Below the pieces are notes generated by a model. That model was not told the origin of the DNA. It worked only from the letters and a program-made list of their open reading frames with translations, and made no database searches. A stretch of DNA of 64,000 nucleotides from Candidatus Methylomirabilota bacterium (GTDB lineage Bacteria; Methylomirabilota; Methylomirabilia; Rokubacteriales; CSP1-6). Below are positions 10,648 to 44,961 of the stretch, one piece after another. Position 1 is the first letter of the stretch. Each line of letters begins with the position of its first letter. Location: contig DATFYA010000085.1 in the NCBI GenBank assembly GCA_035315345.1, positions 2,288 to 66,287 of the forward strand, written 5' to 3'. The position numbers were made by a program, and so were the translations under genes.

Positions 10648-10654
10648 TCGCCCG

Positions 10655-15415: not shown

Positions 15416-16399
15416 ATGCCGTTCCCCCTCTACCGTCCCCGGCGGCTCCGCGAGTCGCCGCTGCTCCGCTCCATGGTGCGCGAGACCGCCCTGCGCGTCG
15501 ACGACTTCGTCTATCCGCTCTTTGCGGTGCACGGACGAGGGGTCCGCGAGCCGATCAGCTCGATGCCCGGGCAGTGTCGGCTCTCGATCGACGAATTGCT
15601 GAAGGAGTGCAAGGACGCGGCGTCGATGGGCATCCCGGCGGTGCTGCTCTTCGGACTGCCGCGCGACAAGGACCCCCGCGGGACCGAGGCCTACGCCGAG
15701 GACGGCATCATCCAGCAGGCGGTGCGGGCGGTGAAGGACACCATCCCGGACCTGCTCGTGATCACCGACGTGTGCCTGTGCGAGTACACGAGCCACGGCC
15801 ACTGCGGGGTGGTCGAGGACGGGCGGGTGAAGAACGATCCCACCCTCGAGCTGATCGCGCGCACCGCGGTGTCGCACGCCGAGGCGGGGGCCGACATGGT
15901 GGCGCCGTCGGACATGATGGACGGCCGCGTGGCCGCCATCCGCGAGGGACTGGACGAGGCGGGATTCCCCGAGACGCCGATCATGGCCTACTCGGCCAAG
16001 TACGCCTCCGCGTTCTACGGGCCGTTCCGCGAGGCGGCGGACTCCACCCCGCAGTTCGGCGACCGCCGCTCCTATCAGATGGATCCCGCCAACGCGGTCG
16101 AGGCGATGCGCGAGGTCGCGCTCGACGTGGACGAGGGCGCCGACATCGTGATGGTGAAGCCCGCGCTGCCGTATCTCGACATCATCGCGCGCGTGAAGGG
16201 TGAGTTCGGGCTGCCGGTGGCCGCCTATTCGGTCTCGGGCGAGTACGCGATGCTGAAGGCGGCCGGGCAGCTCGGCTGGCTCGACGAGGAGCGCGCGGTG
16301 CTGGAGGCGCTGACCGGCATCCGCCGCGCGGGCGCCGACATCATCATCACCTACTTCGCCAAGGACGCGGCCCGCCTGATCGAGCAGGGCCGCGCGTGA
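15416..16399 (+). CDS. hemB: porphobilinogen synthase (delta-aminolevulinate dehydratase)
   Basis: …[18 protein letters not shown]…, Cys-rich Zn site ([12 protein letters not shown]), active-site Lys region. Confidence 0.95.
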
Positions 16400-16836
16400 G
16401 GATCTCGGCCAAGGGCGAGTACGCCATCAAGGCGATGGTGGATCTCGCCCTGCACGAGGGCCGCGACCTGCAGCCGATCCAGGACATCGCGGCCCGGCAG
16501 GGCATCCCGCAGCGCTACCTGGAGCAGGTGCTGCTGCAGCTCAAGCGCTCCGGCTTCCTCTACGCCCGGCGCGGCTCGGCGGGCGGCTACCGGTTGAGCC
16601 GGCCCGCCGACAGCATCACGGTGGGGGCGGTGCTCCGCGCGGTCGATGGGCCGACGGCCGGCCCCGATGCCTCGCGCCGCAACGGCGGGCCGGCCGGAGA
16701 GGCGGCGGGCCTTGCCGAGTTGTGGCAGGAGATTGCCGACGCGGTGGCCTCGGTGGTGGACCGGACCACCCTGGAGGATCTCCGCCGGCGCGCCGAGGAG
16801 CGTCGCAGCGCGGCGCGGCCGATGTACCACATCTGA
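16396..16836 (+). CDS. Rrf2-family transcriptional regulator (CymR/IscR-like)
   Basis: …[18 protein letters not shown]…[31 protein letters not shown]…. GTGA overlap with hemB. Sits directly upstream of cysK, as CymR does. Confidence 0.8.
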
Positions 16837-16859
16837 ATCCGAGCAGGGGACACAGGACG

Positions 16860-17807
16860 ATGACGACGACGCGGAAGACGGCCGCGCCGACCCGGCCACG
16901 GCTGGCCGGATCGGTGCTGGACCTGGTGGGCGGCACGCCGCTGGTGCGCCTGAACCGCATTCCCAAGCCGGGCGGCGCCGTCGTCCTGGCCAAGATGGAA
17001 TCGCTCAACCCGGGCGGAAGCGTGAAGGACCGCATCGCGCTCTCGATGATCGAGGAGGCGGAGCGGCGCGGGCTGCTCAAGGCCGGGGCCACCATCGTGG
17101 AGCCGACCAGCGGCAACACCGGCATCGGGCTCGCGATGGTCTGCGCGGTGCGCGGCTACCGCCTCATCCTGACCATGCCCGACGACATGAGCGTGGAGCG
17201 GCAGCGCCTCCTCGCGCGCTACGGGGCCGAGATCCATTTGACTCCGGCCATCGAGGGCATGACCGGGGCGGTCTTCGCGGCGCAGGAGATCTGCCGCGAG
17301 CATCCCGACTACTTCATGCCGCTGCAGTTCGAGAATCCCGCGAATCCGGAGGCGCACCGGCGCACCACCGCGCAGGAGATCCTCGACGCGACCGAGGAGC
17401 GCGTGCACGCCTTCGTGGCCGCGGTGGGGACCGGCGGCACGGTGACCGGGGTCGGCGAGGTCCTGAAGGAGCGCGTGCCCGGCGTCCGGGTGGTCGGCGT
17501 CGAGCCGGCGCGCTCGCCGGTGCTCTCCGGAGGGCGCTTCCGGCCGCACGGCATCCAGGGCATCGGCGCGTCCTTCGTGCCCGGCATCCTGAACCGCTCC
17601 GTGCTGGACGACATCATACAGGTGCGCGACGAGGACGCCACGGCCATGGCGCGGCGTCTCGCCCGCGAGGAGGGGCTCCTCGTCGGCATCTCGTCGGGCG
17701 CCAACGTGTTCGCGGCGTGCCAGGTCGCCGAGACGATGGCGGCCGATCACGTCGTGGTCACCGTGCTGTGCGATACTGGCGAGCGCTATCTGAGCGTCAC
17801 CTTCTAG
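16860..17807 (+). CDS. cysK: cysteine synthase (O-acetylserine or O-phosphoserine sulfhydrylase; CysK/CysM type)
   Basis: PLP fold-II, …GGTPLVRLNRI…ESLNPGGSVKDRIALSMI…TSGNTGIGLA…. 315 aa. CysK versus CysM cannot be decided by eye. Confidence 0.9.
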   Translation: MTTTRKTAAPTRPRLAGSVLDLVGGTPLVRLNRIPKPGGAVVLAKMESLNPGGSVKDRIALSMIEEAERRGLLKAGATIVEPTSGNTGIGLAMVCAVRGYRLILTMPDDMSVERQRLLARYGAEIHLTPAIEGMTGAVFAAQEICREHPDYFMPLQFENPANPEAHRRTTAQEILDATEERVHAFVAAVGTGGTVTGVGEVLKERVPGVRVVGVEPARSPVLSGGRFRPHGIQGIGASFVPGILNRSVLDDIIQVRDEDATAMARRLAREEGLLVGISSGANVFAACQVAETMAADHVVVTVLCDTGERYLSVTF

Positions 17808-17818
17808 GAGAGGCGGCC

Positions 17819-18142
17819 ATGAGTGTCCAGGTCTACATCCCGACGCCGTTCCGCCGCGCGACCAGGAACGCGGACCGGGTCTCCGTGGAGGCGCCCGACG
17901 TCAAGGGCCTGCTCGACGAGCTCGAGGACCAGTTCGGCGGGCTGAAGGGTCTGGTGCGCAACGAGCAGGGCGAGGTCCACCACCACGTCAACATCTACGT
18001 CAACAACGAGGCGATCGAGGCGCTCCAGGGACTCGACACCGCGCTAAAGGACGGCGACGAGGTATCGATCATTCCAGCCCTCGCGGGCGGCGGGCCAGCC
18101 CTCGCGGGCGGCGGGCCGGCCCTCGCGGTGGGACGGGGCTGA
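17819..18142 (+). CDS. MoaD/ThiS/CysO-family sulfur-carrier protein with repeated C-terminal extension
   Basis: Beta-grasp carrier, …VNIYVNNEAIEALQGLDTALKDGDEVSIIPALAGG…, followed by GPALAGGGPALAVGRG. AGGAG RBS 8 nt upstream. The 3' end carries a 21-bp tandem duplication. Confidence 0.65.
   Translation: MSVQVYIPTPFRRATRNADRVSVEAPDVKGLLDELEDQFGGLKGLVRNEQGEVHHHVNIYVNNEAIEALQGLDTALKDGDEVSIIPALAGGGPALAGGGPALAVGRG
18081..18139 (+). repeat. 21-bp tandem duplication (about 2.7 copies, GCCCTCGCGGGCGGCGGGCCA-like) forming the 3' end of the CysO-like gene
   Basis: AGCCCTCGCGGGCGGCGGGCC / AGCCCTCGCGGGCGGCGGGCC / GGCCCTCGCGGTGGGACGGGGCTGA read directly from the sequence. It encodes PALAGGG-PALAGGG-PALAVGRG. 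Confidence 0.8.
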
Positions 18143-18152
18143 CCGCGCCCGG

Positions 18153-18614
18153 ATGATCCTCACGTCCGACGAGCTGCAACGGGTGCGCGCTCAGGCGGTG
18201 ACGGAGTACCCGGCGGAGTGCTGCGGCGTTCTCCTGGAGCGGACCTCACCCGAGCCGGACCGGCTCCTGATGCCCTGCCGCAACATCCAGGACGAGCTGC
18301 ACGCCAAGGACCCGGTGCGCCACTCGCGCGATTCCCGCACCGCCTACTTCATCGATCCCAAGGACCTGCTGGCCATCGGCCGGCGCGAGGGGCAGGGCTA
18401 CCGCGTCGCGATCATCTATCACTCCCACATCGACACCGGGGCCTACTTCTCGGCGACCGACCGGCAGAACGCGCTCATCAACGGCGAGCCCGCCTATCCC
18501 GACGCGGTCTACGTCGTGCTGTCGGTGGTGGACCGCCGCGTGGACGACGTGGCCGCGTTCGTCTGGGACAAGTCCGCGCGCGATTTCGCGCCGACCGACT
18601 TCACGCCCTCCTGA
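18153..18614 (+). CDS. JAMM/MPN+ (Mov34) metalloprotease, Mec+/QbsD-like
   Basis: E-x(n)-HSH-x7-S-x2-D zinc motif (…[18 protein letters not shown]…), 153 aa, immediately after the sulfur-carrier gene. Confidence 0.75.
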
Positions 18615-18618
18615 TCGC

Positions 18619-19899
18619 GTGACCGGCTCCGACGATCTCTTCGAGCGCGCCCAGCGCCTCATGCCCGGGGGCGTCAACAGCCCGGTGCGGGCGTTCCGCG
18701 GCGTGGGCGGGGCCCCGTTCTTCGTGGCCCGCGGGGACGGGGCCCGCGTGTTCGACGTCGACGGCCGCTCCTACGTCGACTTTCTCGGCTCGTGGGGGCC
18801 GCTGATCCTCGGGCACGCGGCGCCGGCGGTGGTGGAAGCGCTGACCGAGGCGGTGCGCCGCGGCACCAGCTACGGCGCACCCACGCCGGGCGAGGTGGAG
18901 ATGGCCGATCTCATCGGCCGCGCGGTGCCGAGCATGGAGATGGTGCGGCTGGTCTCGTCGGGCACCGAGGCCGGGATGAGCGCGATCCGGCTCGCCCGCG
19001 GCGCCACCGGGCGCGACTTCATCATCAAGTTCGACGGCTGCTACCACGGCCACGCCGACAGCCTGCTCGTGAAGGCGGGGTCCGGCGGCGCCACCTTCGG
19101 GGTGCCGGACAGTCTCGGCGTGCCGCCCGCGTTGGCCGCGCTCACCCTGACGGTCCCGTTCAACGATCTGGACGCGGTCCGACGCCAGCTCGAGGCGCAT
19201 CCCGAGCAGGTGGCGGCGGTGATCGTGGAGCCGGTGGCCGGCAACATGGGCGTGGTCCCGCCCGCCCCCGGATTCCTCGCCGGCCTGCGCGACCTGACCG
19301 CGCGGCACGGCAGCCTGCTCATCTTCGACGAGGTGATCACCGGGTTCCGGGTCGCGTGGGGCGGCGCGCAGGCCCGTTACGGCGTGCGGCCGGACCTGAC
19401 CTGCCTCGGCAAGATCATCGGCGGGGGACTGCCGGTGGGCGCCTACGGCGGCTCGCGCCGCATCATGGAGCGGGTGTCGCCGCTGGGCGGCGTCTACCAG
19501 GCGGGGACGCTCTCCGGGAACCCGCTCGCGGTGGCGGCCGGCCTCGCCACGCTCCGCGCGCTGCAGACGCCCGGCACGTACGAGCGGCTGGAAGCCCTCG
19601 GCGCGCGTGTCGAGCGCGACGTGGTCGAGGCGGCCCGCGCGGCGGGCGTTCCGGTGACCGTGAATCGCGTCGGCTCGATGCTGACCGTCTTCTTCACCGA
19701 CGGCCCGGTGACCGACTATAGCTCCGCCAAGCGCGCCGACACCACTCGGTACGCGCGCTACTTCCACGCGATGCGAGAGGGCGGCGTGTTCCTGGCGCCC
19801 TCGCAGTTCGAGGCGGCCTTCGTCTCGCTCGCCCATCGCGACGAGGACCTGGCGGAGGCGGCCCGCGCCGGCCGCGAAGCGCTCCAGAAGGTCCGCTAG
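18619..19899 (+). CDS. hemL: glutamate-1-semialdehyde 2,1-aminomutase
   Basis: …[20 protein letters not shown]… class-III aminotransferase with PLP lysine region. GTG start. Confidence 0.95.
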
Positions 19900-19911
19900 C
19901 CTCGCAGAGTA

Positions 19912-19941
19912 TTGACACTTCGTTTTTTCACGTGATAGGGT
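19912..19941 (+). promoter_or_regulatory. putative promoter upstream of the act-like operon (TTGACA -35, weak -10)
   Basis: Perfect TTGACA at 19912-19917. Possible -10 GATAGG/TAGGGT 16-18 nt downstream. Sits in a 170-bp AT-richer spacer. Confidence 0.3.
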
Positions 19942-20069
19942 TCACAAGGCTGGAGCCCGGACACGCGTCGAAGAACCACCGGTCTTCATCCACGGCACGC
20001 CTCAGAGCGGGAGAGCACGTCCAGCGGGGGGCTGCGTCACCTGCCAATGCGAGTTGGGCGGAGGAGTGG

Positions 20070-23000
20070 ATGAGTGTGATGGATCGCCGGTCGTTCTTCA
20101 AGATCGTCGCCACCACCGGCGCCGCGGCGGCGACGGGCGGCTGCGGACCATCGGCAGGAACGCTCCTCCCCTACGTCGTCCCTCCCGACAACATCGTCCC
20201 CGGCGTACCGGCATATTTCTCGACGGTGTGCCGCGAGTGCCCAGCCGGATGCGGCCTCATCGCCAAGAACCGCGACGGCCGCGTGATCAAGCTCGAGGGC
20301 AACCCGGATCATCCGGTGAACACCGGCGCGCTCTGCATCCGCGGTCACGCTGGACTGCAGGCGCTCTACCATCCCGATCGGTTCCGCGGCGCGCTGGCGA
20401 AGGGCCAGCCGGTCGCCTGGGACGACGCCGAGAAGCAGGTGGCCGACAAGATCGCCGCCCTCGCCGGCGGCAAGCAGGGCGGGCGCATCGCGATCGTGAG
20501 CGGGCTCGAGACGGGAAGCCTCGGCCGGCTGATGGACGAGTGGGTGCGGCTGGTGGGCGCGCGTCCGCGTATCTCGTACGAGCCGCTCGCCTACGAGGCG
20601 GTGCGGGCGGCGAACCGCATCACGTTCGGACGGGACGCGATACCGGAGTACGCGATCGGCGAGGCTGCGTACCTGGTGTCCTTCGGCGCCGACTTCCTGG
20701 AGACGTGGCTGTCGCCGGTCGCCTACACCGCCGACTTCTCGCGCATGCACGCGTTCTACCAGGGGCGCACCGGCACCTTCGTGCACGTCGAGCCCCGGGC
20801 GTCGATGACCGCTGCCAACGCGGACGAATGGGTGCGGAACGCGCCGGGCACCGAGGGGCTGCTCGCCCTCGCCATGCTCAAGGTCGTCGTGGACGAAGGG
20901 CTCGCGACGGGCGGCGGCGATCCGAACACGCTGCGCTCGGCGACCCGCTCGGCGGACGTGGACGCGGCCGCGTCGGCCTCCGGCGTGCCCGCCGACACGA
21001 TCCGACGGGTCGCGCGGGACCTGGCGCGCTCGAAGGCGGGCCTCGTCGTCGGTGGCGGGATGGCCGGCGCCGGCTCCAGCAGCACGGACACGCTGGTCGC
21101 GATCAACCTGCTCAACGTGGCGATCGGGGCGGTGGGCCCCCGCGTCCGCTTCGGCTCGGCCTCGGCCTTCGGGCGCGCGAATCCCTATTCCGACATGGTG
21201 GCGCTGACCCAGGCGATGGCGGGCGGGCAGATCGACGTGCTGGTGCTGGTCGACGTCAACCCGGTGTATGCGATGCCTGCGAAGTCGGGCTTCGCCGACG
21301 CGCTCGGCAAGGTGCCGCTGGTCGTGGCCCTCGCGAGCCGATCGAGCGAGACGACGGCGCGCGCCGCGGTGGTGCTGCCGACCCTGCATCCGCTCGAGTC
21401 GTGGGGCGACTATTCGCCGCAGGAGGGCGTGCTCGGGCTCCTGCAGCCCGCGATGGGGCCGGTGCTGATCGAGGGCAAGCCGGTCCAGGCGAAGAACCCC
21501 GGCGACATCCTCTTGAGCGTGGGCCGTCAAGCCCTGCGGCTCGAGGAGGGCAAGGGCCCGCTGCCCTGGCCGACCTTCCGCGATTTCCTCACGGAAGAGT
21601 GGCAGAAGATGGCGCGGGCCCAGGGCAGCGCCGAGCCGTTCCCGGCCTATTGGGAGGCGGCGCTCCGGCGGGGTGGAGTGTGGCGGAACGTCCCGCCGAG
21701 CCCGATGAGCTTGCGGCCGGAGGCCGGTCGGGTTTCGGCCGCGCCCGCGCGGCTGGACGGCAACGGCTCCCACGTGCTCCTCGTGTATCCGTCGAGCCGC
21801 TTCTACGACGGCCGTGGCGCGGACCGGGCATGGCTGCAGGAAGCGCCGGACCCGATGACCCAGGTGAGCTGGGACGCCTGGGTCGAGGTGCCAACCGAGA
21901 CGGCGACCCGGATGGGGATCCGGCGCGGCGACCTGCTCACCCTGACCTCGCCGAACGGCGCGATCGAGCTGCCCGCCTATCCGACCGATCTCGTGCACCC
22001 CGGGGCGGTGGCGGTGCCCATGGGACAGGGGCGCAAGCTGTCGGGTGCCTATGCGGCCGGGACGCCGTCGACGGCGGCCAGCAACCCGCAGCCCAGCACG
22101 TTCCTGAACGTGGGAGCGAATCCCGTCGATCTCCTCGGGTCGACGCCCGATCCCGCGTCGGGTGGTCCCATCTACCTCGGCGTGAAGGTGTCGCTGGCGC
22201 AGACCGGAGGGCGGCGCGCCCTCGCGGTGCCGCAGGCCACGTTCGATCAGGACGAGCGCGAGCTCGCGCAGTACGTGGGCCTCACCGCCGCCCGCGAGCT
22301 GGACCTGCGCGGACGGGCCCCGGCCGACGCCAGTCATCCGAGCATGTATCCGCCGATGAAGTACGCCGAGTACAAGTGGGGCATGACGGTGGACGTGGAC
22401 CGCTGCACCGGCTGCTCGGCGTGCGTGGTCGCCTGTCAGAGCGAGAACAACGTCCCGGTGGTGGGACGCGAGCAGGCGGCCTACGGGCGCATCCAGCACT
22501 GGCTGCGGCTGGAGCGCTGGCAGGAGGGCACCGCCGCGCAGCCGCTCAACATGTTCATGCCGATGTTCTGCCAGCACTGCGAGGTGGCGCCGTGCGAGCC
22601 GGTGTGCCCGGTCTACGCGGCCTACCACACCCGGGAGGGCCTGAACGGGCAGGTCTACAACCGGTGCGTGGGCACGCGGTACTGCGGCAACGCGTGCCCG
22701 TACCACGTCCGGCGCTTCAACTGGTTCAACTACACGTGGCCGGCCCCGCTCGACCAGCAGCTGAATCCGGACGTGACGGTGCGCGAGGCCGGTGTGATGG
22801 AGAAGTGCACGATGTGCCTGCAGCGCATCGTGGCCGCCAAGGCGCAGGCGCGCGATGACGGGCGGGCGGTGCGCGACGGCGACATGCAGACCGCCTGTCA
22901 GCAGACGTGCCCGACCCGCGCGATCACCTTCGGCAACCTGAAGGACGCCAACGCGGAGAGCGCCAAGCTGGCGCGGTCGCCCCGCGGCTACCACGTGCTC

Positions 23001-23096
23001 GGGGAGATCGGGACCCAGCCCAGCGTGACCTATCTCAAGAAGGTCGTGCGCACCGAGCCCGCCGGCGGCCACAAGGCCCCCGGAGGCCACGCGTGA
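20070..23096 (+). CDS. actB: alternative-complex-III-like subunit ActB (Tat-exported molybdopterin-oxidoreductase-like domain fused to a 4x[4Fe-4S] ferredoxin domain)
   Basis: GGAGGAG RBS. Twin-arginine signal MDRRSFFKIVATTGAAAA. N-terminal half molybdopterin-oxidoreductase-like. C-terminal half has CxxCxxCxxxC clusters (CTGCSACVVACQSE…, CQHCEVAPCEPVCP…, CVGTRYCGNACP…). About 1008 aa. Confidence 0.7.
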   Translation: MSVMDRRSFFKIVATTGAAAATGGCGPSAGTLLPYVVPPDNIVPGVPAYFSTVCRECPAGCGLIAKNRDGRVIKLEGNPDHPVNTGALCIRGHAGLQALYHPDRFRGALAKGQPVAWDDAEKQVADKIAALAGGKQGGRIAIVSGLETGSLGRLMDEWVRLVGARPRISYEPLAYEAVRAANRITFGRDAIPEYAIGEAAYLVSFGADFLETWLSPVAYTADFSRMHAFYQGRTGTFVHVEPRASMTAANADEWVRNAPGTEGLLALAMLKVVVDEGLATGGGDPNTLRSATRSADVDAAASASGVPADTIRRVARDLARSKAGLVVGGGMAGAGSSSTDTLVAINLLNVAIGAVGPRVRFGSASAFGRANPYSDMVALTQAMAGGQIDVLVLVDVNPVYAMPAKSGFADALGKVPLVVALASRSSETTARAAVVLPTLHPLESWGDYSPQEGVLGLLQPAMGPVLIEGKPVQAKNPGDILLSVGRQALRLEEGKGPLPWPTFRDFLTEEWQKMARAQGSAEPFPAYWEAALRRGGVWRNVPPSPMSLRPEAGRVSAAPARLDGNGSHVLLVYPSSRFYDGRGADRAWLQEAPDPMTQVSWDAWVEVPTETATRMGIRRGDLLTLTSPNGAIELPAYPTDLVHPGAVAVPMGQGRKLSGAYAAGTPSTAASNPQPSTFLNVGANPVDLLGSTPDPASGGPIYLGVKVSLAQTGGRRALAVPQATFDQDERELAQYVGLTAARELDLRGRAPADASHPSMYPPMKYAEYKWGMTVDVDRCTGCSACVVACQSENNVPVVGREQAAYGRIQHWLRLERWQEGTAAQPLNMFMPMFCQHCEVAPCEPVCPVYAAYHTREGLNGQVYNRCVGTRYCGNACPYHVRRFNWFNYTWPAPLDQQLNPDVTVREAGVMEKCTMCLQRIVAAKAQARDDGRAVRDGDMQTACQQTCPTRAITFGNLKDANAESAKLARSPRGYHVLGEIGTQPSVTYLKKVVRTEPAGGHKAPGGHA

Positions 23097-24445
23097 GCGC
23101 TCCTCCGGCCGGCGCCGCGCAGCCCACGTGGGCCGACGTCAACCACGATGTCGACCGGACGCTGCTGACCGCGGGTAACACCTACTTCGCGTGGATGACG
23201 CTCATCGCGCTCATCCTCGCCGCCGGCGTGGCCGCGTGGGCCTGGCAGATCTGGGTCGGCTTGGGCGCGGCCGGTATCCGGACGCCGCAGATGTGGGCGC
23301 TCTACATCACCAACTTCGTGTTCTGGATCGGTATCGGCCACGCGGGCACGCTGATCTCCGCCATCCTGTATCTCTTCCGGGCGAAGTGGCGCACCTCGAT
23401 CTACCGGGGCGCGGAGGCCATGACCGTCTTCGCGGTCATGACCGCGGGGCTGTTTCCGCTGATCCACGTCGGGCGCATGTGGTTCGCCTACTGGCTCATG
23501 CCCTATCCGAACCAGCGCTACCTCTGGCCGAACTTCAAGTCGCCCCTCATCTGGGACGTGTTCGCGATCTCGACCTATCTGACCATCAGCGTGGTCTTCT
23601 TCATCGTGGGCCTCGTGCCGGACATCGCGGCGATCCGCGACCGGTCCACCGGGCTCAAGCGGAAGGTCTTCGCGGTCTGCGCGCTCGGCTGGGAGGGGAG
23701 CGACTGGCAGTGGCGGCACTACCGTCGCGCCTACGGACTGCTCGCCGCGCTGGCGACCCCCCTCGTGCTCTCCGTGCACAGCGTGGTGTCGTTCGACTTC
23801 GCGATGGCCCTGATCCCCGGCTGGCACTCGAGCCTGTTCGCCCCGTTCTTCGTGGACGGAGCCATCTTCTCGGGCTTCGCCATGGTGCTGATCCTCATCA
23901 TCCCCATGCGCGCCGTGTTCGGCTGGCACGCCTACATCACCGACCGGCATCTGGACGCGATGGCCAAGCTGACCCTGGTCACCAGCCTGGTGCTGACCTA
24001 CTTCTATCTCTGCGAGTCGGGCACCGCGTGGTACAGCGGCGAGGTGTACGAGCGGGCGTCGCTCTTCGCGCGGGCCTTCAAGGCCTACACGTTCACCTTC
24101 TGGCTGCAGTACATCTGCAACTCGCTGATCCCCCTCGTGCTCTTCTGGCGGAAGGCGCGGACCAACCTGGTGATCCTGTACGTGGTGTCGATCTTCGTCC
24201 TCATCGGCATGTGGCTCGAGCGATTCAACATCATCGTCCCCGGTCTGGGCTATGACTTCTATCCGTACACGTGGGGCGTGTACCTGCCGCGCGTCGTGGA
24301 CACCACGATCACGGTGGCCTCCTTCGCGTGGTTCTTCCTGCTGTTCCTGGGCTTCATCCGCGTGATGCCGTCGCTGTCGATCGTGGAGGTCAAGGAAGTC
24401 TTGCCCCATCCGCTCAAGCACGGCGCCCATGGAGGCCATCACTGA
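23093..24445 (+). CDS. actC: NrfD/PsrC-family polytopic membrane subunit (ActC-like quinol-interacting subunit)
   Basis: GTGA overlap with actB. About 10 predicted TM helices, NrfD-like. Confidence 0.7.
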   Translation: MSAPPAGAAQPTWADVNHDVDRTLLTAGNTYFAWMTLIALILAAGVAAWAWQIWVGLGAAGIRTPQMWALYITNFVFWIGIGHAGTLISAILYLFRAKWRTSIYRGAEAMTVFAVMTAGLFPLIHVGRMWFAYWLMPYPNQRYLWPNFKSPLIWDVFAISTYLTISVVFFIVGLVPDIAAIRDRSTGLKRKVFAVCALGWEGSDWQWRHYRRAYGLLAALATPLVLSVHSVVSFDFAMALIPGWHSSLFAPFFVDGAIFSGFAMVLILIIPMRAVFGWHAYITDRHLDAMAKLTLVTSLVLTYFYLCESGTAWYSGEVYERASLFARAFKAYTFTFWLQYICNSLIPLVLFWRKARTNLVILYVVSIFVLIGMWLERFNIIVPGLGYDFYPYTWGVYLPRVVDTTITVASFAWFFLLFLGFIRVMPSLSIVEVKEVLPHPLKHGAHGGHH

Positions 24446-24953
24446 GATGGCGACCGCCAACGTGCTCGGGGTGTTCGCGCACGTCGACACCACGCTCCAG
24501 GCCATCCGGGACCTGCGGGCCAAGGGCTTCGGGGACCTGACCGTCTACACCCCGGTTCCGGTGGAGGAGATCGAGGAGGAGGTGGAGAGTGTCCGCCCCG
24601 TGTCCTCGGTCCGGCTCTTCACGCTGGTCGGCGGCCTCACCGGCACCGCGACCGGCTTCTTCCTGACGATCTGGACCTCGCTGAAGTGGGAGCTGCTCAC
24701 CGGCGGGAAGGCGGTCGTGTCCATCCCGCCCTTCATCATCATCGCCTTCGAGCTGACCATCCTCCTGGGCGGGCTGGCCAGCGCCCTCGCCATCCTGGTC
24801 CTGGGACGCCTGCCGAAGCTGCGGCCGTCGGCCACCTACGATCCGCGCTTCACCCTGGATCGCTTCGGGGTCGCGGTGGCGTGCCCGGCCGACAAGGTGG
24901 ACTCGGTGAGCTCGGTGCTGTCCGGCGCGGGCGCGGAAGAGGTCCGGCGATGA
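24429..24953 (+). CDS. actD: ActD-like small membrane subunit (DUF3341 family)
   Basis: 174 aa, two TM helices, N-terminal …ANVLGVFAHVDTTLQAIRDLRAKGF… resembles DUF3341. Position fits ActD. Confidence 0.55.
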   Translation: MEAITEMATANVLGVFAHVDTTLQAIRDLRAKGFGDLTVYTPVPVEEIEEEVESVRPVSSVRLFTLVGGLTGTATGFFLTIWTSLKWELLTGGKAVVSIPPFIIIAFELTILLGGLASALAILVLGRLPKLRPSATYDPRFTLDRFGVAVACPADKVDSVSSVLSGAGAEEVRR

Positions 24954-25456
24954 TGAAGTGGGTGTTCGTGCTGTCGCTGCTGGTGGTGGGGGCCTTCGGC
25001 GGCTGGCTCGCGCTGAACGTGGTGCACTGGTGGCAGACCGACATGTTCCACACGCAGCGGGTGATGCCCGGCGAGGCGGCCTACTCGATGCCGACCGGCA
25101 GCCTTCCGCGCAACGGCGGCCAGATGTACTACTCGCCGGCGGATCGTGATGCCGCCGCGGCCCGGCGCAATCCGATCGCGGCCACCACCCAGTCGGTGAG
25201 CCGCGGCGGAGAGCTCTTCGCGATCTACTGCACGCCGTGCCACGGGGCCAGCGGCAAGGGTGACGGCCCCGTGTCCACGAAGTTCGTCCCGCCGGCCGAC
25301 CTCACGAACCCGGAGCTGCAGAAGGTCCGCACCGATGGGTACTGGGAGAGCTACCTGAGCGTCGGCGGCGCGGTCATGCCCTCGTACGGCGAGGCCCTGA
25401 CGCCCGACGAGCGGTGGGCGATCGTGAACTACGTGCGAACGCTGGCCAAGAAATGA
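24950..25456 (+). CDS. actE: monohaem c-type cytochrome (ActE-like)
   Basis: Signal/anchor then a single CTPCH haem-binding motif with downstream Met. ATGATGA overlap with actD. Confidence 0.65.
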   Translation: MMKWVFVLSLLVVGAFGGWLALNVVHWWQTDMFHTQRVMPGEAAYSMPTGSLPRNGGQMYYSPADRDAAAARRNPIAATTQSVSRGGELFAIYCTPCHGASGKGDGPVSTKFVPPADLTNPELQKVRTDGYWESYLSVGGAVMPSYGEALTPDERWAIVNYVRTLAKK

Positions 25457-26598
25457 GCGCGAACACGACCGTGTCGGCCGCTCCGGTCCCGCGCGTGCCC
25501 CAGCCGCTGCTGGTCCTGCTGGCCGCCCTCGGGATCGTCGCCTTCCTCTACGGCATCACCCAGGGCCAGCCGCTCCGGACCTGGATGATCTACCTGATCA
25601 ACCTGCTGTTCTGGTCGAGCCTGGCCATCACCGGGCCCGCCATCGCCGGCATGATCCAGGTGACGGAGGGGCGCTGGTCGCCCACCATCAAGCGGATCGC
25701 GCTGACGACCGCCGGCTTCCTGCCGGTGTCGTTCGTGCTCTTCCTCGTGCTGTTCGCGGGGCGGGCGGTCCTGTACCCGTGGGTGAGCCATCCGCTGCCC
25801 AACAAGGCGGCCTGGCTGAACGTGCCGTTCATGTCGCTGCGCATCGGCATCGGCGTGCTGCTGCTGTACTGGGTGGCCATGCGCTACACCAAGGCGGTGT
25901 TCGCGGCCGACCAGGCCGGCATCCCGGCCGAGGTGGGCAACGACCGGCTGATGCGGCTCAGCACCATCATGCTGATCCTGTACGTGGTGGTGCTGTCGCT
26001 CTGGGGCTTCGACCTCATCATGTCGCTCGATCCCATCTGGTACAGCGGCCTGCTCGGCGGCTACTACGTGGTGAGCTCGATGTACACCGGCTTCGGCCTC
26101 GTGACCTACCTCACGCTGCGCTACAACCAGGCGGGCGTGACCGCGGTCGCCCCGAAGGCCATCCAGGACGTCACCAAGCTCACGTTCGCGCTGAGCATCG
26201 TGTGGATGTACTTCTTCTTCTCGCAGTACCTGATCATCTGGTACGGCAACGTGCCGAACGAGACCCGCTTCTTCGTGCTGGGCTTCCTGCAGCAGCCGTG
26301 GGGGCGCCTGGCCTGGGCCATCTTCATCGTCGGCTGGCTGATCCCGTTCTCGTATCTGCTCAAGCGCCTCACCGGGCGGCCTCCCACGCGGCACAAGGTC
26401 CTCACCGTGATCCTCTGGATGGGCTGGATCGCGATCTTCTTCGAGCGGGTGCTCGTCGTCTCGGTGTCCCTCAAGCAGACCGCGATCCCGCACGGCATCA
26501 TCGAGGTCCTGGTCACGCTCGGCTTCTTCGCGCTGTTCATGCTGAGCCGCACCTGGTTCCTCGCTCGCTACAAGCCGGTCCTGAACCTGTCCCGGTAG
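25453..26598 (+). CDS. actF: polytopic membrane subunit (ActF-like, NrfD-related)
   Basis: ATGA overlap with actE. About 10 TM helices. Final gene of the cluster. Confidence 0.55.
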   Translation: MSANTTVSAAPVPRVPQPLLVLLAALGIVAFLYGITQGQPLRTWMIYLINLLFWSSLAITGPAIAGMIQVTEGRWSPTIKRIALTTAGFLPVSFVLFLVLFAGRAVLYPWVSHPLPNKAAWLNVPFMSLRIGIGVLLLYWVAMRYTKAVFAADQAGIPAEVGNDRLMRLSTIMLILYVVVLSLWGFDLIMSLDPIWYSGLLGGYYVVSSMYTGFGLVTYLTLRYNQAGVTAVAPKAIQDVTKLTFALSIVWMYFFFSQYLIIWYGNVPNETRFFVLGFLQQPWGRLAWAIFIVGWLIPFSYLLKRLTGRPPTRHKVLTVILWMGWIAIFFERVLVVSVSLKQTAIPHGIIEVLVTLGFFALFMLSRTWFLARYKPVLNLSR

Positions 26599-26640
26599 GT
26601 CGGGCCGCGGGCGGAGCGGCCGCGCGGTAGAATACGCGGC

Positions 26641-27867
26641 GTGATCTCCGTCGAAGAGGCCCTCGACCGCATTCTCTCCCGCGTGGCGCCGCTGGGCGAC
26701 GAGCGCGTCGCGCTCCCCCAGAGCCTCCACCGCGTGCTCGCCGAGGACATCGACAGTCCGCGCGACATGCCGCCCTGGCCGGCCTCCTCGATGGACGGCT
26801 ACGCGCTTCGCAGCGACGACACCGGCGCGGCCGCCGCCAGGTCTCCCGCCCGCCTGGCGGTGGCCGGGCGCGTGCCGGCGGGCGCCATGGCCGAGCGCCC
26901 GCTCCGGGCCGGCGAGGCCTTCCGGATCTTCACGGGGGCGCCGCTACCCGAGGGCGCGGACTCGGTGATCCCCCAGGAGGACGTCACCGAGGAGGGCGGC
27001 GCGCTGCTGGTGCCCCGCCCCGTGAGCGCCGGCGACTTCGTGCGCCCGCGCGGTGAGGACATGACGCGGGGCGATCGGGTCCTCGAGCGGGGGCGCGTGC
27101 TCAGCGCCGCCGACATCGGCCTGCTCGCCACCGTCGGGCGGGCGCGGGTGAGCGTGATCCGTCGGCCGCGCGTCGGGATCCTGTCCACCGGCGACGAGCT
27201 GGTGGATCTGGGCGGGCGCATCGGTCCCGGTCAGATCCCGAACTCCAACAGCTACTCGCTCGTGGCCCAGGTGCTCGAGGCCTTTGCCGAGCCGGTGAGC
27301 CTCGGCATCGCGGGGGATCGCCTGGAGGATATCGAGGGTCGGCTGCGCTGGGGGCTCGGGTGCGATCTGGTGATGTCCTCCGCCGGCGTCTCGGTCGGCG
27401 AGCACGACTTCGTGAAGGACGCGCTGGCCCGTCTCGGCGCCGAGCAGCATCTCTGGCTGGTGGACATGCGTCCCGGAAAGCCGATCGCGTTCTCCACGAT
27501 CCCGCAGGACGGCAAGGCCGCGCTGGCCCTCTTCGCGCTGCCGGGCAACCCGGTCTCCGCCATGGTGACCTTCGAGCTGTTCGTGCGCCCCGCCCTCCTC
27601 CGCATGGCCGGGCACTCGCGCCTGCAGCGGCCGACCATCACCGCGCACGCGCTCGCCGCGATCAAGAACGGCGACAGCCGCCGCGGCTATCTGCGCGTGA
27701 CCCTCACGCCCGACGGCGACGGCTATGGCGCGCGCCTCACCGGCACGCAGAGCTCGGGCGTCCTCCGCTCGATGGTCGCCGCCGACGGCCTCGCCGTCGT
27801 CCCCGGCCGCACGACGATAGAGCCGGGCCAGCCCGTGAAGGTGATCGTCCTCCGGCAAGGCCTGTAG
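26641..27867 (+). CDS. moeA: molybdopterin molybdenumtransferase
   Basis: …SVEEALDRILSRV…PWPASSMDGYAL… and the GGTG-like motif (…STGDELV…). 408 aa. GTG start. Confidence 0.9.
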   Translation: MISVEEALDRILSRVAPLGDERVALPQSLHRVLAEDIDSPRDMPPWPASSMDGYALRSDDTGAAAARSPARLAVAGRVPAGAMAERPLRAGEAFRIFTGAPLPEGADSVIPQEDVTEEGGALLVPRPVSAGDFVRPRGEDMTRGDRVLERGRVLSAADIGLLATVGRARVSVIRRPRVGILSTGDELVDLGGRIGPGQIPNSNSYSLVAQVLEAFAEPVSLGIAGDRLEDIEGRLRWGLGCDLVMSSAGVSVGEHDFVKDALARLGAEQHLWLVDMRPGKPIAFSTIPQDGKAALALFALPGNPVSAMVTFELFVRPALLRMAGHSRLQRPTITAHALAAIKNGDSRRGYLRVTLTPDGDGYGARLTGTQSSGVLRSMVAADGLAVVPGRTTIEPGQPVKVIVLRQGL

Positions 27868-27900
27868 CACCTCAGCGCGCGGAGCGGGAGGGGCCGGCGG

Positions 27901-28032
27901 CGGGGCGGGGTGGTGGCTCGCGGACCACGAGGCGCGATCTCGTCTCGACGGGGTAGCAGTTCCCATTCTGGGAGGCGAGGCTCCTGGCGATCGTTGGCAG
28001 GAACGGGTCCGTCGAGCCACCACCCCGCCCCG
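27901..28032 (+). mobile_element. MITE-like palindromic element, copy 1 (132 bp; 20-bp perfect terminal inverted repeats CGGGGCGGGGTGGTGGCTCG / CGAGCCACCACCCCGCCCCG)
   Basis: Terminal inverted repeats, subterminal CGGACC/GGTCCG and an internal hairpin TCCCATTCTGGGA, all read directly. No ORF of its own. Confidence 0.6.
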
Positions 28033-28065
28033 CCGCCGGCCCCTCCCGTTCGCCCTTGGGCGGCG

Positions 28066-28135
28066 TCAGGATTTGCGGAGGAACATCCACCAGAGTGTGA
28101 GGCAGGCGCCGGCGCACATCGATTCGAAGGTCAGG
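28066..28135 (-). repeat. duplicated copy (about 90% identity) of the 3' end of yeeE/yedE (last about 23 codons plus stop)
   Basis: 28066-28135 matches 28457-28530 (…AGGCTCCTGACCTTCGAATCGATGTGCGCCGGCGCCTGCCTCACACTCTGGTGGATGTTCCTCCGCAAATCCTGA on the minus strand). It encodes …LLTFESMCAGACLTLWWMFLRKS*. Confidence 0.7.
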
Positions 28136-28148
28136 AGCCTGCCGGCGG

Positions 28149-28228
28149 TGGGGCGGGGAGTGGCTCGCGGACCACGAGGCGCGATCTCGCCTCGACGGGG
28201 GTAGCAGTTCCCATTCTTGGAGGCGAGG
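28149..28228 (+). mobile_element. MITE-like element, copy 2 (left half only, about 80 bp)
   Basis: GGGGCGGGGAGTGGCTCGCGGACCACGAGGCGCGATCTCGCCTCGACGGGGGTAGCAGTTCCCATTCTTGGAGGCGAGG equals the left arm of copy 1. It ends abruptly at the duplicated moeA tail. Confidence 0.55.
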
Positions 28229-28257
28229 TGATCGTCCTCCGGCAGGGTCTGTAACAC
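28229..28257 (+). repeat. duplicated copy of the last 9 codons plus stop of moeA
   Basis: TGATCGTCCTCCGGCAGGGTCTGTAACAC versus moeA 27842-27870 TGATCGTCCTCCGGCAAGGCCTGTAGCAC. Confidence 0.7.
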
Positions 28258-28286
28258 TCCAGCGGGAAGGGCGGGAGGCGGGGCCG

Positions 28287-28419
28287 CGGGGCGGGGTGGT
28301 GGCTCGACGGACCCGTTCCTGCCAGCGATCGCCAGGAACCTCGCCTTCCAGATTGGGAACTGCTACCCGCGAGGAGACGAGATCGCGCCTCGTGGTCCGC
28401 GAGCCACCACCCCGCCCCG
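28287..28419 (-). mobile_element. MITE-like element, copy 3 (133 bp, inverted relative to copy 1, about 90% identity)
   Basis: Same 20-bp terminal inverted repeats. The interior is the reverse complement of copy 1 with a few substitutions. Confidence 0.6.
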
Positions 28420-28456
28420 CGGCCCCGCCTCCCGCCCGTTCTCGCCGGCCGTGCGC

Positions 28457-29467
28457 TCAGGGCTTGCGGAGGAACATCCACCAGAGGGTGAGGCAGGCGC
28501 CCGCGCACATGGAGGCGAAGGTCAGGAGGCTGCCGACGGCGAGCGTCGCGGAGTTGGTGAGGCCCTGGTTGATGTTGCAGCCCTCGGCGACGAGCGCGGC
28601 CGCCCCCATGAGGAGTCCGCCGCCGAAGATCTTCGCGAGACTCGAGGCGGGGGGCCACTTCCAGGCGAACGTGCCGGTGGTCCAGGCCGCGATGAACGCG
28701 CCGACGGGCACGCCGAGGGCCATCAGCATGCTCCAGGTCACGCGGTTCGGGTAGCCGACCATCGGGTAGGTGAGGAGGTGGCCGGTGTTGGCTGCGAACG
28801 TGATGCCCACCGGGTGATCGCCGAGCGCAGATGCCCACCAGCCGACCACGATCATCACGCCCACCGCGGCGCCGGTGGCCGGCCACCGCCACGTGCCGTG
28901 CTCGGGCTCGCGGCGCCCGCGACGGAGCCAGATCGCGCCCAGCACGAGCAGCCCGGCGATCACGATCCACGGGGAGACGCCGGTGACGCCGGGCAGCGTG
29001 ACCGCGCCGCCGTCTCCCAACGAGATGACCGGTCTCTGCAGCATCGTGCGGATCGGCGCGAGGACGCCGATACCCGCGGTGGTGGCGCCGATCGCGAAGC
29101 CCACGAGGACGACCAGTGCGCCGGCCGCGCCCTCGCCGATCCGGTACCAGGCGCTGCCCGGGCAATCGCCCGCCAGGATCATTCCGACCCCGAACAGCGC
29201 GCCGCCCACGATGTTGGAGACCCACCGCAGGGGCCGTAGCGGGATCTCGACCAGCCCGAGCGCCTCGATGATCTGAACGCCGACCATCGCCACCAGCGCG
29301 GCGAGGACATAGGCGCGCAGGATGTTGCCGTCGCGCATGAGGACGGCGTTGGAGAGGGCGCGAGTCAGGCAGAACCCGCCGCGCTGGGTGACATAGCCGA
29401 AGACGAGGCCGACGGACAGCGCCGAGACGAACAGCATCCAGGACAGGTCGTCCATCGCGCCGCTCAT
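28457..29467 (-). CDS. YeeE/YedE-family (DUF395) sulfur-compound transporter, TsuA-like
   Basis: Two-repeat polytopic protein with the conserved Cys motifs (…RGGFCLTR… and …AEGCNINQG…). Start among several in-frame Met (29494, 29467, 29455). Confidence 0.8.
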   Translation of the reverse strand: MSGAMDDLSWMLFVSALSVGLVFGYVTQRGGFCLTRALSNAVLMRDGNILRAYVLAALVAMVGVQIIEALGLVEIPLRPLRWVSNIVGGALFGVGMILAGDCPGSAWYRIGEGAAGALVVLVGFAIGATTAGIGVLAPIRTMLQRPVISLGDGGAVTLPGVTGVSPWIVIAGLLVLGAIWLRRGRREPEHGTWRWPATGAAVGVMIVVGWWASALGDHPVGITFAANTGHLLTYPMVGYPNRVTWSMLMALGVPVGAFIAAWTTGTFAWKWPPASSLAKIFGGGLLMGAAALVAEGCNINQGLTNSATLAVGSLLTFASMCAGACLTLWWMFLRKP

Positions 29468-44799: not shown

Positions 44800-44874
44800 G
44801 CGGGAATAGCTCAGTGGTAGAGCACAACCTTGCCAAGGTTGGGGTCGCGGGTTCGAATCCCGTTTCCCGCTCCA
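44800..44874 (+). tRNA. tRNA-Gly (anticodon GCC)
   Basis: Cloverleaf by eye. Acceptor GCGGGAA/TTCCCGC, anticodon loop TTGCCAA, T-loop GGTTCGAATCC, 3' CCA encoded. Confidence 0.9.
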
Positions 44875-44885
44875 TATGACTGAAG

Positions 44886-44961
44886 GGCGGCGTAGCCAAG
44901 TGGCTAAGGCGGAGGTCTGCAAAACCTCTATTCAGCGGTTCGAATCCGCTCGCCGCCTCCA
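44886..44961 (+). tRNA. tRNA-Cys (anticodon GCA)
   Basis: Acceptor GGCGGCG/CGCCGCC, anticodon loop CTGCAAA, T-loop GGTTCGAATCC, CCA encoded. Confidence 0.9.

Follow-up and report, generated by a model that had tools for sequence, protein, structure and literature searches.

Alternative complex III (ACIII) is known structurally from Rhodothermus marinus, Roseiflexus castenholzii, Chloroflexus aurantiacus and Flavobacterium johnsoniae, where it has the composition ActABCDEF[G/H] (PDB 6F0K, 6LOD, 8K9E and 6BTM). The [4Fe-4S] wire of these complexes has been called elusive or a dead end and the B1 domain of ActB is described as cofactor-less (PMC5928083, PMC7439408), while the N-terminal part of ActE lines the haem-1 pocket beside the [3Fe-4S] cluster (PMC7439408). 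Deletion of actA in F. johnsoniae abolished ACIII-aa3 activity, and ActE was no longer incorporated (PMC8552683); a working ActA-less complex would therefore need re-wiring. The subunit make-up of ACIII varies by lineage, and actAB1B2CDE without actF/G is given for Nitrospirales (PMC12342949, citing Refojo 2013). Within the texts covered by our literature search, whose scope did not take in the two Refojo reviews, we found no published ActA-less cluster. The window analysed here, a 64 kb stretch of chromosome from an uncultured soil bacterium of the Rokubacteria/Methylomirabilota, carries an operon that probably encodes just such a complex, a functional five-subunit derivative of ACIII (ActB-C-D-E-F) that dispenses with ActA. 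A five-haem subunit thought to be essential would thus have been lost from a quinol-oxidising complex that is still conserved.

The act operon occupies positions 20070-26598 of the plus strand as five co-directional genes in the order actB-C-D-E-F, as the first-pass annotation had proposed, and in a PDB search the top solved-structure match of every product was its counterpart ACIII subunit. By these comparisons all five genes are orthologues of ACIII subunits. Reading the junctions directly bears out the proposed GTGA/ATGA gene overlaps: actB (20070-23096) and actC (23093-24445) share a GTGA, and an ATGA is common to actD (24429-24953) and actE (24950-25456) and again to actE and actF (25453-26598). 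The overlap of actC with actD is 17 nt, or else ActD begins at the alternative start 24447.

ActB is a protein of 1008 aa with the Pfam domains Molybdop_Fe4S4, Molybdopterin, Molydop_binding and Fer4, and a Tat motif (RRSFFK) followed by Cys25 as a possible lipobox, in agreement with the earlier description of a Tat-exported fusion of about 1000 aa between a molybdopterin-oxidoreductase-like and a ferredoxin domain. Its phmmer matches in the PDB are led by 6f0k_B at 8e-138 and include 6lod_B, 8k9e_B and 6btm_B; the nearest structures to its AF2 model (pLDDT 84.7) are ActB chains (TM 0.76-0.85), with ArrA and PsrA next (about 0.7). The top NCBIfam models for its two halves are QrcB (231 bits, cut-off 440) and QrcC (228 bits, cut-off 400). 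We rejected the assignment to a conventional PsrA with a separate PsrB, because the large subunit joins B1 and B2 in one protein whose closest similarity is to ActB. The B2 part, a four-cluster ferredoxin domain at about nt 22347-23093, keeps 15 cysteines arranged as 4+4+3+4, the predicted ligands of one [3Fe-4S] and three [4Fe-4S] clusters. The MopB-like B1 domain carries in addition the motif of a fifth cluster, FS0, that is missing from the solved ACIIIs: C54-x2-C57-x3-C61-x27-C89 (nt 20229-20336), a CX2CX3CX27C [4Fe-4S] motif matched by PF04879 at 56 bits. Across 40 diverse homologues the four cysteines never vary, and 108 of 137 representatives have them; the FS0 subdomain is conserved like B2 (p-distance 0.155 vs 0.176, against 0.27 for B1 overall). 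What truly sets this ActB apart from those of known structure is its retention of FS0, which the first-pass annotation missed.

The remaining subunits are as they had been named. ActC is an NrfD-like quinol-binding membrane subunit (PF03916 at 2e-23; 6f0k_C at 1.7e-126) in which alignment shows conservation of the quinol-site residues His139, Ser164 and Asp169 (numbered as in R. marinus). The two-helix subunit ActD matches PF11821 (ActD) at 8e-43, and among solved structures 8k9e_D at 6e-13 and 6f0k_D at 6e-11. ActE is a membrane-anchored monohaem cytochrome c (PF00034 and PF13442; 6f0k_E at 8e-17) whose single CxxCH, CTPCH, spans residues 94-98 (nt 25229-25243) and whose Met ligand lies in AVMPSY; the CxxCH and MPSY are retained in 15 of 15 aligned loci. 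The polytopic ActF, a second NrfD-like membrane subunit, has no Pfam hit; its best PDB match is 6f0k_F at 8e-23, followed by 8k9e_F, 6btm_F and 6lod_F, and tblastn identifies it as a paralogue of ActC (22-24% identity).

The TTGACA promoter noted ahead of the operon is present on the plus strand at 19912-19945, with its -35 element at 19912-19917 and, after an 18-nt spacer, an extended -10 (TG-A-TAGGGT, 19933-19941) that is overlapped by a palindrome, GTGA-N6-TCAC (19932-19945). A consensus scanner passed it over, as the -10 matches the consensus at just three of six positions. The element is invariant across 9 aligned loci, and its 16-mer CGTGATAGGGTTCACA recurs exactly in 21. It is followed by a leader of about 120 nt with a conserved stem-loop on the same strand at 19948-19991, formed by GGCTGGAGCCCGG, a variable loop and CCGGTCTTCATCC. 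RNAalifold on 12 loci gave 11 pairs with invariant stems, a variable loop and zero covariation, so the stem-loop stands as a predicted structure; the leader matched no Rfam family.

In relatives, actA usually lies between this same promoter and actB. A pentahaem ORF stands directly upstream of actB in nine loci, and ActA-containing loci have a homologous TTGAC-N17/18-GTGATA(T/A)GGTTC element upstream of actA. Here a class-III aminotransferase gene, probably hemL, precedes the promoter, at the place where a check for actA had been called for, and a scan of all 64 kb in six frames found one CxxCH only, that of actE, so the multihaem ActA reported as missing is indeed absent from the window. We rejected a contig-edge artefact, since the promoter that precedes actA in sister-clade loci precedes actB here, an arrangement that marks the absence as a lineage-specific deletion. 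Among the 48 loci with enough flank, ActA is absent from 12 of 12 at 66% or greater ActB identity and present in 2 of 2 at 55-60% and 34 of 34 below 50%. The ActA-less loci are also monophyletic in a neighbour-joining tree of ActB, built with no bootstrap, and together these patterns indicate a single loss of the pentahaem actA at the base of the clade, which left the promoter directly before actB.

It is possible, though unlikely, that ActA is made from an unlinked gene and joins ActBCDEF, in which case the complex would be a canonical quinol:cytochrome c ACIII with an unusual gene order only. Gene order in the family is not fixed, as 6-8 metagenome loci carry a 4-haem ActA-like gene downstream of actF rather than upstream of actB; the dependence of ActE incorporation on ActA in F. 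johnsoniae (PMC8552683) also favours such a gene, and inspection for actA covered 64 kb of the source genome and 10 kb either side of relatives' loci. Within those limits, however, no ORF with at least four haem motifs was found in the fetched flanks of the clade's 12 fully flanked loci, and on a 5.49-Mb contig of the same layout (ERZ28493348 ctg4075649) none of the genes called within +/-10 kb is multihaem. In the other lineages sampled actA lies inside the cluster in all 36 flanked loci. A genome scan that hit 24 ActA-less genomes found no second ActB-type locus in them, which is weak evidence because its patterns fit close relatives only. That the operon is a decaying remnant, its function lost with actA, is very improbable: ActA was essential in the sole genetic test available (PMC8552683), but the conservation data already contradict decay. 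More than 25 independent assemblies at 66-92% ActB identity carry the five ORFs intact, all cofactor ligands are conserved, and promoter and leader are invariant. Nei-Gojobori estimates of dN/dS (GC3 about 0.9) place actB-F, including the monohaem actE, under purifying selection, at 0.26, 0.19, 0.20, 0.28 and 0.35 for actB to actF; this range of 0.19-0.35 matches the ActA-containing sister clade, whose values are 0.29, 0.18, 0.25, 0.29 and 0.70.

The other reading to be weighed concerns molybdenum. The next gene downstream is, as annotated, of the moeA family (26641-27867, plus strand, GTG start), with MoeA_N, MoCF_biosynth and MoeA_C domains and NCBIfam scores of 354.6 (Glp) and 352.8 (MoeA), each below cut-off; it begins 42 nt after actF and lies outside the complex. 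Its adjacency had raised the idea that B1 binds Mo/W-bisPGD, or a ligand-free pterin as in arsenite oxidase, in a Psr/Arr-like quinol-linked periplasmic oxidoreductase of unspecified substrate served by moeA. In keeping with this, FS0 is strongly conserved together with the Arg behind its fourth Cys (LCIRG), the EPR...TAANADEW...PGTE segments of ActB resemble DPR...PG(T/Q)D of ArrA, and B1 retains the whole MopB fold. Arsenite oxidase, moreover, has Ala at the Mo-ligand position. We nevertheless consider a pterin-binding B1 improbable. Ala174 of ActB aligns with the Mo ligand Cys193 of ArrA, most of the clade has Gly there, and across 137 representatives the column varies among A/G/S/N/D/Q/H; a cysteine inventory found no Cys in B1 outside FS0 and no in-frame TGA, which leaves B1 without any candidate Cys/Sec molybdenum ligand. 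The ArrA substrate residues are not conserved in the alignment, and the T...AD motif is retained in the cofactor-less R. marinus ActB too. PF00384 scores 28 bits, within the 0-39 bits of FS0-less, cofactor-less-type ActBs, while some relatives reach 81-86; models of true Mo-enzymes align only over the first 280-370 residues with scores far under their cut-offs, and the best NCBIfam model is the cofactor-less QrcB. The moeA linkage is itself confined to Rokubacteria (0 of 34 loci elsewhere), and a -10-like box of its own, TAGAAT (26628-26633, plus strand), 7 nt ahead of the GTG, keeps a fixed distance in 21 of 21 loci examined, including those with actF-moeA gaps of 120-1580 nt. The genes surrounding the act operon are housekeeping genes. 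Judged by its sequence context, moeA is a housekeeping neighbour with its own transcription and is unrelated to the complex, and B1 is most likely molybdenum-free.

In a functional ActA-less complex, quinol would be oxidised at the conserved ActC site and its electrons would enter the [3Fe-4S] cluster of ActB. Because the haem wire of ActA is gone, they would then have to reach ActE, the only haem left, and pass onward to a periplasmic acceptor or oxidase. Two routes can be proposed, of which we slightly favour the one where ActE fills the vacated ActA position beside the [3Fe-4S] cluster. Alternatively, the [4Fe-4S] wire, lengthened by FS0, may carry electrons through B1. The B1/B2 rate ratio (1.65 vs 1.70) shows relative constraint on B1 unchanged after the loss of ActA, with no sign that B1 became more important. 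Proton translocation by ActC and ActF is presumed, as in ACIII.

The operon resembles the solved ACIIIs in its gene order from B to F, a fused, exported ActB whose B2 holds one [3Fe-4S] and three [4Fe-4S] clusters, the quinol site of ActC, ActD, a monohaem ActE and a second NrfD-like ActF. Unlike them, it lacks the pentahaem ActA that is their main electron wire, and its B1 holds a complete FS0 motif where all four solved ActBs are cysteine-free; its ActE has an N-terminal helix and no lipobox cysteine, and no oxidase genes lie downstream. Nqo3/NuoG of complex I likewise has a MopB-derived domain that lost molybdenum and kept an FS0-equivalent [4Fe-4S] cluster, N7. ActB matches the NCBIfam NuoG models weakly, and the resemblance is by analogy only, as Nqo3/NuoG is cytoplasmic and belongs to NADH dehydrogenase, and its N7 lies off-pathway. 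The menaquinone reductase QrcABCD of sulfate reducers shares a Mo-free MopB-like subunit (QrcB, which carries no redox cofactor; PMC13059093), together with a four-cluster protein and a subunit like NrfD, but has the multihaem QrcA and lacks ActD, the second membrane subunit and a monohaem ActE. FS0-bearing B1 domains are already known at the sequence level from the ACIII-like actA-B1-B2-C-D-E-F clusters of Fe-oxidising Beta- and Zetaproteobacteria, whose ActB1 shares the CX2CX3CX27C motif; those clusters keep actA and split actB, whereas the Rokubacteria operon has a fused actB and no actA (Kato et al. 2015, PMC4643136). Finally, in PsrABC and ArrAB of the CISM family five FeS clusters (FS0 and four others), with no haem among them, connect an NrfD-type quinol site to the MopB fold, the electron path with which an ActA-less variant would be left. 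Their fold is similar to that of ActB (TM about 0.7), but in ActB the Mo ligand is gone, the PGD-binding domain is degenerate and a single chain unites the A and B parts, and the Rokubacteria operon adds the subunits ActD, ActE and ActF.

The five tightly packed genes on the + strand at 20070-26598 of the window (70% G+C overall) encode products that are each closest, among solved structures, to the matching subunit of alternative complex III (ACIII). The first, actB, specifies a product of 1008 aa that carries a twin-arginine signal (MSVMDRRSFFK, which includes the RRSFFK motif) and the Pfam domains Molybdop_Fe4S4, Molybdopterin and Molydop_binding, then 4Fe-4S dicluster domains; a search of all solved structures returned 6f0k_B as its nearest match, over the full length (8e-138), followed by 6lod_B, 8k9e_B and 6btm_B. 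The second gene, actC, encodes an NrfD-family membrane protein (nearest 6f0k_C, 1.7e-126), the third, actD, a PF11821 ActD protein (E 8e-43; nearest 8k9e_D and 6f0k_D), the fourth, actE, a cytochrome c with a single CTPCH plus MPSY (nearest 6f0k_E, 8e-17), and the fifth, actF, a polytopic protein with no Pfam match (nearest 6f0k_F, 8e-23). The actB/actC junction is a GTGA and the actD/actE and actE/actF junctions are ATGA, while actC and actD are either joined by a 17-nt overlap or have TGAG-ATG between them. The first-pass annotation had described an ACIII-type operon with this gene architecture, GTGA/ATGA junctions, a TTGACA promoter and an adjoining moeA, and every checkable point of that description proved correct. 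The quinol site of ACIII has been assigned to ActC His139, Ser164 and Asp169 (R. marinus numbering; PMC8076601, PMC5928083), and all three are identical in the alignment. By these comparisons the operon is homologous to ACIII and is predicted to work like it.

An AlphaFold2 model of ActB built from 40 diverse homologues (pLDDT 84.7, pTM 0.88) is closest to the five PDB ActB chains (TM 0.76-0.85), with ArrA, Nap, Fdh and PsrA ranking after them (TM about 0.55 on query and about 0.7 on target); such a model carries no cofactor or inter-subunit information, and a shallow alignment of 27 sequences at 66-92% identity gave an unusable one (pLDDT 46.6). No NCBIfam model reaches its cut-off on ActB, the best being QrcB (231 of 440 bits) and QrcC (228 of 400), and TIGR04519, whose presence in that library is uncertain, is not among the matches to the MopB-like domain (B1). 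ActB contains exactly 20 cysteines: four in the N-terminal [4Fe-4S] motif of B1 (FS0), 15 in the ferredoxin domain (B2), where a 4+4+3+4 pattern fits one [3Fe-4S] and three [4Fe-4S] clusters, and Cys25 after the signal peptide. Cys25 (20142-20144) directly follows the h-region of the Tat signal (AAATGGC) and is kept in most homologues; given this residue, ActB may be a Tat-exported lipoprotein.

The pentahaem subunit ActA was said to be missing, and this is upheld on a wider sample. Scanned in six frames, the 64 kb contain a single CxxCH, in actE, and no pentahaem ActA; hemL lies directly upstream of the act promoter, and 12 of the 12 fully flanked loci of the clade likewise have no ActA. The nearest named homologues come from Methylomirabilota, Rokubacteria and NC10 metagenome-assembled genomes. 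A scan of one genome per species gave 31 loci, almost all Rokubacteria, with a common synteny of hemB, Rrf2, cysM-like, ThiS, JAB, hemL, the act genes, moeA and, on the opposite strand, a sulphur-transport gene. A 211-219-aa ORF with five CxxCH motifs stands directly 5' of actB in five of these loci whose ActB is 55-58% identical to that of the window (L018, L021, L022, L026 and L030), and an ORF of the same type occupies this position in a deltaproteobacterial locus at 43% identity (L027). Where ActB identity is at least 66%, the pentahaem ORF is absent from every locus and the order is hemL, promoter, actB.

Metagenomes were then searched with a profile made from 40 diverse ActBs, and the 80 top-ranking of more than 582 matches were added as loci. 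Flanks could be compared in 48 loci from the two scans together, those with 0.9 kb or more on the 5' side of actB and 6 kb or more on its 3' side. In the 12 loci at 66% ActB identity or above, no ORF reaches four haem motifs; ActA is upstream in both loci at 55-60%, and among the 34 below 50% it is upstream in 28 and downstream of actF in six. FS0 is present in all three groups, and moeA is adjacent in the first two only. In a neighbour-joining tree of ActB, drawn without support values, all ActA-less loci form one clade, sister to an ActA+ Rokubacteria clade and with ActA+ outgroups, so that a single deletion of actA would most simply account for the ActA-less clade. The ActA-less layout recurs on a contig of 5.49 Mb (L112; ERZ28493348 ctg4075649), so it did not arise from misassembly of short contigs. 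Traces of actA were sought between hemL and actB in ActA-less loci by tblastn and sensitive blastn, which recovered the shared promoter element and nothing else apart from a non-significant match of 13 aa in L011 (E = 4). A serious rival to outright loss, which we consider rather improbable, is that actA is unlinked and lies elsewhere in the genome. Relatives were viewed within 10 kb on either side and the window's own genome within 64 kb, and a homologue search with the L018 ActA listed 120 matches, all of them members of the ActA+ clade at least 76% identical to the query.

Other arrangements were seen in the scans. Several loci (L044, L045, L050, L069, L071, L074, L075 and L079) have actB-C-D-F followed by a four-haem ActA-like gene, with an ActE-like gene several kb downstream. 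One contig (L093, 3193-12185) carries two ActB-like matches and two pentahaem ORFs and resembles tandem ACIII-like clusters. Large ORFs of 470-1060 aa with five CxxCH motifs lie 3' of some distant ACIII-like clusters (L065 14971-16389, L106 14510-17329, L110 11248-14421).

The genes that remain are maintained. More than 25 independent assemblies have every one of the five ORFs intact, and pairwise Nei-Gojobori dN/dS values, which are simple estimates at extreme GC3, are 0.26 for actB in the ActA-less clade against 0.29 in the ActA+ clade, 0.19 against 0.18 for actC, 0.20 against 0.25 for actD, 0.28 against 0.29 for actE and 0.35 against 0.70 for actF. The CxxCH of ActE and the Met of AVMPSY are kept in every locus. 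This conservation matters because deletion of actA in F. johnsoniae abolished ACIII-aa3 activity and left ActE no longer incorporated (PMC8552683). Compared with its ActA+ relatives, ActE of the ActA-less clade has a 2-residue deletion just past the haem motif (after residue 103). In this clade B1 of ActB carries two insertions, one at residues 467-472 and the other at about 666-679 (nt 21468-21485 and 22065-22106), the latter a low-confidence loop in the AlphaFold2 model; constraint on B1 before and after the loss of ActA showed no shift.

The promoter also links the two states. TTGACA at 19912-19917 is followed after 18 nt by TG-A-TAGGGT, and TTGAC-N17/18-GTGATA(T/A)GGTTC is found 5' of actA in L018, L021, L022 and L026 and 5' of actB in ActA-less loci. 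Judged by this shared element, the act promoter is homologous in the ActA+ and ActA-less states; a consensus promoter scan of 18500-28500 called nothing, and the assignment rests on conservation. A perfect palindrome, GTGA-N6-TCAC, with CRP/FNR-like half-sites, overlaps the -10 element, and the leader after it contains a stem-loop whose stem, GGCTGGAGCCCGG / CCGGTCTTCATCC, is invariant and whose loop varies; the two features together span 19932-19991. Palindrome and stem are more conserved across the ActA-less clade than coding sequence. The stem-loop has no Rfam match and no covariation, and neither a riboswitch nor any other known RNA element was identified in the leader or elsewhere in the window near the operon, the sole matches at Rfam gathering thresholds being a cluster of three tRNAs at 44800-45075, none near the operon.

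A moeA-family gene begins 42 nt past actF, and this juxtaposition had prompted the question whether ActB binds Mo-bisPGD. The wider comparison lends the idea no support: moeA adjoins the operon in Rokubacteria-type loci alone, whether ActA+ or ActA-less, it is adjacent in none of the 34 loci that are more distant, and the gene has a box of its own in 21 of 21 loci. This -10-like hexamer lies exactly 7 nt 5' of the moeA start codon (26628-26640 in the window) in the variants TAGAAT, TAAAAT, TAAGAT, TACAAT, TAGACT, TACAGT and TAGAGT (window, L002-L008, L014-L016, L018, L020, L022, L023, L025, L028, L029, L031, L034, L036 and L037). The surrounding sequence is variable and G+C-rich with no Shine-Dalgarno, and the spacing is kept even where 120-1580 nt separate actF from moeA. 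The fixed distance, the lack of a Shine-Dalgarno and the variable surroundings suggest that moeA has its own promoter giving a leaderless mRNA. In one lineage (L014, 16512-18093) about 1.5 kb has been inserted between actF and moeA, and the box is kept. The product scores equally as MoeA and as the MoeA-like divisome protein Glp, below cut-off for both. The 64-kb region is one of housekeeping genes (ppdK, ilvBHC, leuB, asd, truA, hemACDB, hemL, dprA, topA, hslV-like, argBDG and gltBD-like, among others), with no molybdoenzyme or oxidase in it, and the act-moeA juxtaposition is probably best explained as lineage-specific synteny.

Between hemB and hemL (16396-18614) lie genes for an Rrf2 regulator, a PALP (CysM-like) enzyme, a ThiS-like protein and a JAB peptidase. 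ThiS and JAB were considered as Moco (MoaD-type) genes and rejected, as they sit with Rrf2 and PALP; together the four make up a CysO/Mec-type cysteine pathway embedded in the hem cluster, an arrangement kept across Rokubacteria loci. On the 5.49-Mb contig, FdhD/NarQ-like, FdhE-like and cytochrome c assembly genes stand just 5' of hemA (L112 1-2231); in the window, truA (10640-11446) lies just before the stretch matching this segment.

The B1 domain bears on whether ActB is a molybdoenzyme at all. Its FS0 motif is C54-x2-C57-x3-C61-x27-C89 (CX2CX3CX27C; PF04879, 56 bits); in alignments the ActBs of R. marinus, Roseiflexus, Chloroflexus and Flavobacterium have no Cys at any of the four positions. 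FS0 is present in every Rokubacteria locus, ActA+ or ActA-less, is invariant among 40 diverse homologues and occurs in 108 of the 137 full-length sequences chosen to represent clusters at 50% identity, and its subdomain matches B2 in its slow rate of evolution, the remainder of B1 changing much faster. The split ActB1 of Fe-oxidisers was already known to have this motif (PMC4643136), and finding it here is therefore not new as such. At the level of sequence, B1 appears not to be cofactor-less, unlike the B1 of the ACIII family criterion.

The proposal that ActB binds Mo-bisPGD fares less well. Residues 90-778 offer no Cys or Sec as a Mo ligand, and B1 has no Cys beyond FS0. The ligand Cys193 of ArrA aligns to Ala174 of ActB with top posterior probability, the ArrA substrate residues are also replaced, and the ligand column, variable among the 137 representatives, is mostly Gly within the clade. 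On sequence alone, B1 might still accommodate a pterin lacking any protein ligand, like that of arsenite oxidase. PF01568 scores 41 bits on ActB and PF00384 (Molybdopterin) 28 bits, where FS0-less ActBs give 0-39 bits and two other FS0-bearing relatives 81-86 bits. Molybdoenzyme models stay below cut-off (PhsA 123 of 694, ArrA 119 of 1600, Fdh-alpha 101 of 666), and their alignments cover only the first 280-370 residues. With no Cys or Sec, Ala174 at the ligand position, a low PF00384 score and these partial alignments, we read B1 as a probable Mo-free MopB fold that retains FS0. Cluster N7 of NuoG is a precedent for such a fold. Public records name these ActBs 'molybdopterin-dependent oxidoreductase' or 'selenocysteine-containing dehydrogenase'; the sequence evidence argues that they are not molybdoenzymes.

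In the solved ACIIIs two wires diverge at the [3Fe-4S] cluster: a haem wire runs via ActA to ActE, and a [4Fe-4S] wire heads towards B1, stops beneath the surface and has been called elusive or a dead end (PMC5928083, PMC7439408). The parts present here are the ActC quinol site, the cysteines for one [3Fe-4S], three [4Fe-4S] and FS0, and the one haem of ActE. Quinol electrons would enter the [3Fe-4S] cluster of ActB and reach ActE and an external acceptor without ActA. ActE might fill the vacated space beside the [3Fe-4S] cluster; the N-terminal part of Roseiflexus ActE already lines the haem-1 pocket (PMC7439408). Alternatively, the five-cluster wire could carry electrons into B1, as in Psr. 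We slightly favour the path through a relocated ActE. That three [4Fe-4S] clusters and FS0 form the physiological electron exit of the ActA-less clade is a tentative and somewhat unlikely proposal. If it were true, a natural actA knockout would reveal a second output (or input) branch of ACIII, a general one since most ActB homologues sampled also carry FS0, ending in a MopB-like domain, possibly at a cofactor or partner-binding site still unrecognised.

In many bacteria ACIII takes the place of the bc1 complex; how it works is not settled. From the solved structures, the ActA/ActE haem wire is taken as the working path, and the role of the [4Fe-4S] wire is unexplained. Here an abundant, uncultured soil lineage appears to have deleted actA yet keeps actB-F, including actE, under normal purifying selection. 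It is a natural experiment that would contradict the ActA dependency seen in F. johnsoniae, the sole genetic result on ActA, and through it the role of the FeS wire and ActE becomes directly testable.

Reported variation in ACIII subunits concerns ActF/ActG and split ActB (PMC12342949, PMC4643136); leaving aside the reviews likeliest to mention them (Refojo 2010, 2013), we found no report of ActA-less clusters. The comparison with Psr/Phs operons that the first-pass annotation had proposed yields one shared feature. ActB has the FS0 cysteines at its N-terminus (C54, C57, C61, C89) like Mo/W-bisPGD enzymes of the Psr/Phs/Arr type, but differs from them in having no Mo-ligand residue, only poorly conserved PGD-binding domains and no family model above cut-off. 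QrcABCD is no closer, with QrcB at 231 of 440, QrcC at 228 of 400 and QrcD at 38 of 570; it has a multihaem QrcA where the window has none, whereas the window has ActD and ActF and Qrc has neither. The likeness is to ACIII, with which the window shares a fused Tat-exported ActB, the ActC quinol site, ActD, a monohaem ActE and a second NrfD-like subunit, ActF, and from which it differs in the missing pentahaem ActA and a B1 with a complete FS0 motif. As an ACIII-type enzyme, the complex is a putative quinol:cytochrome c/HiPIP oxidoreductase.
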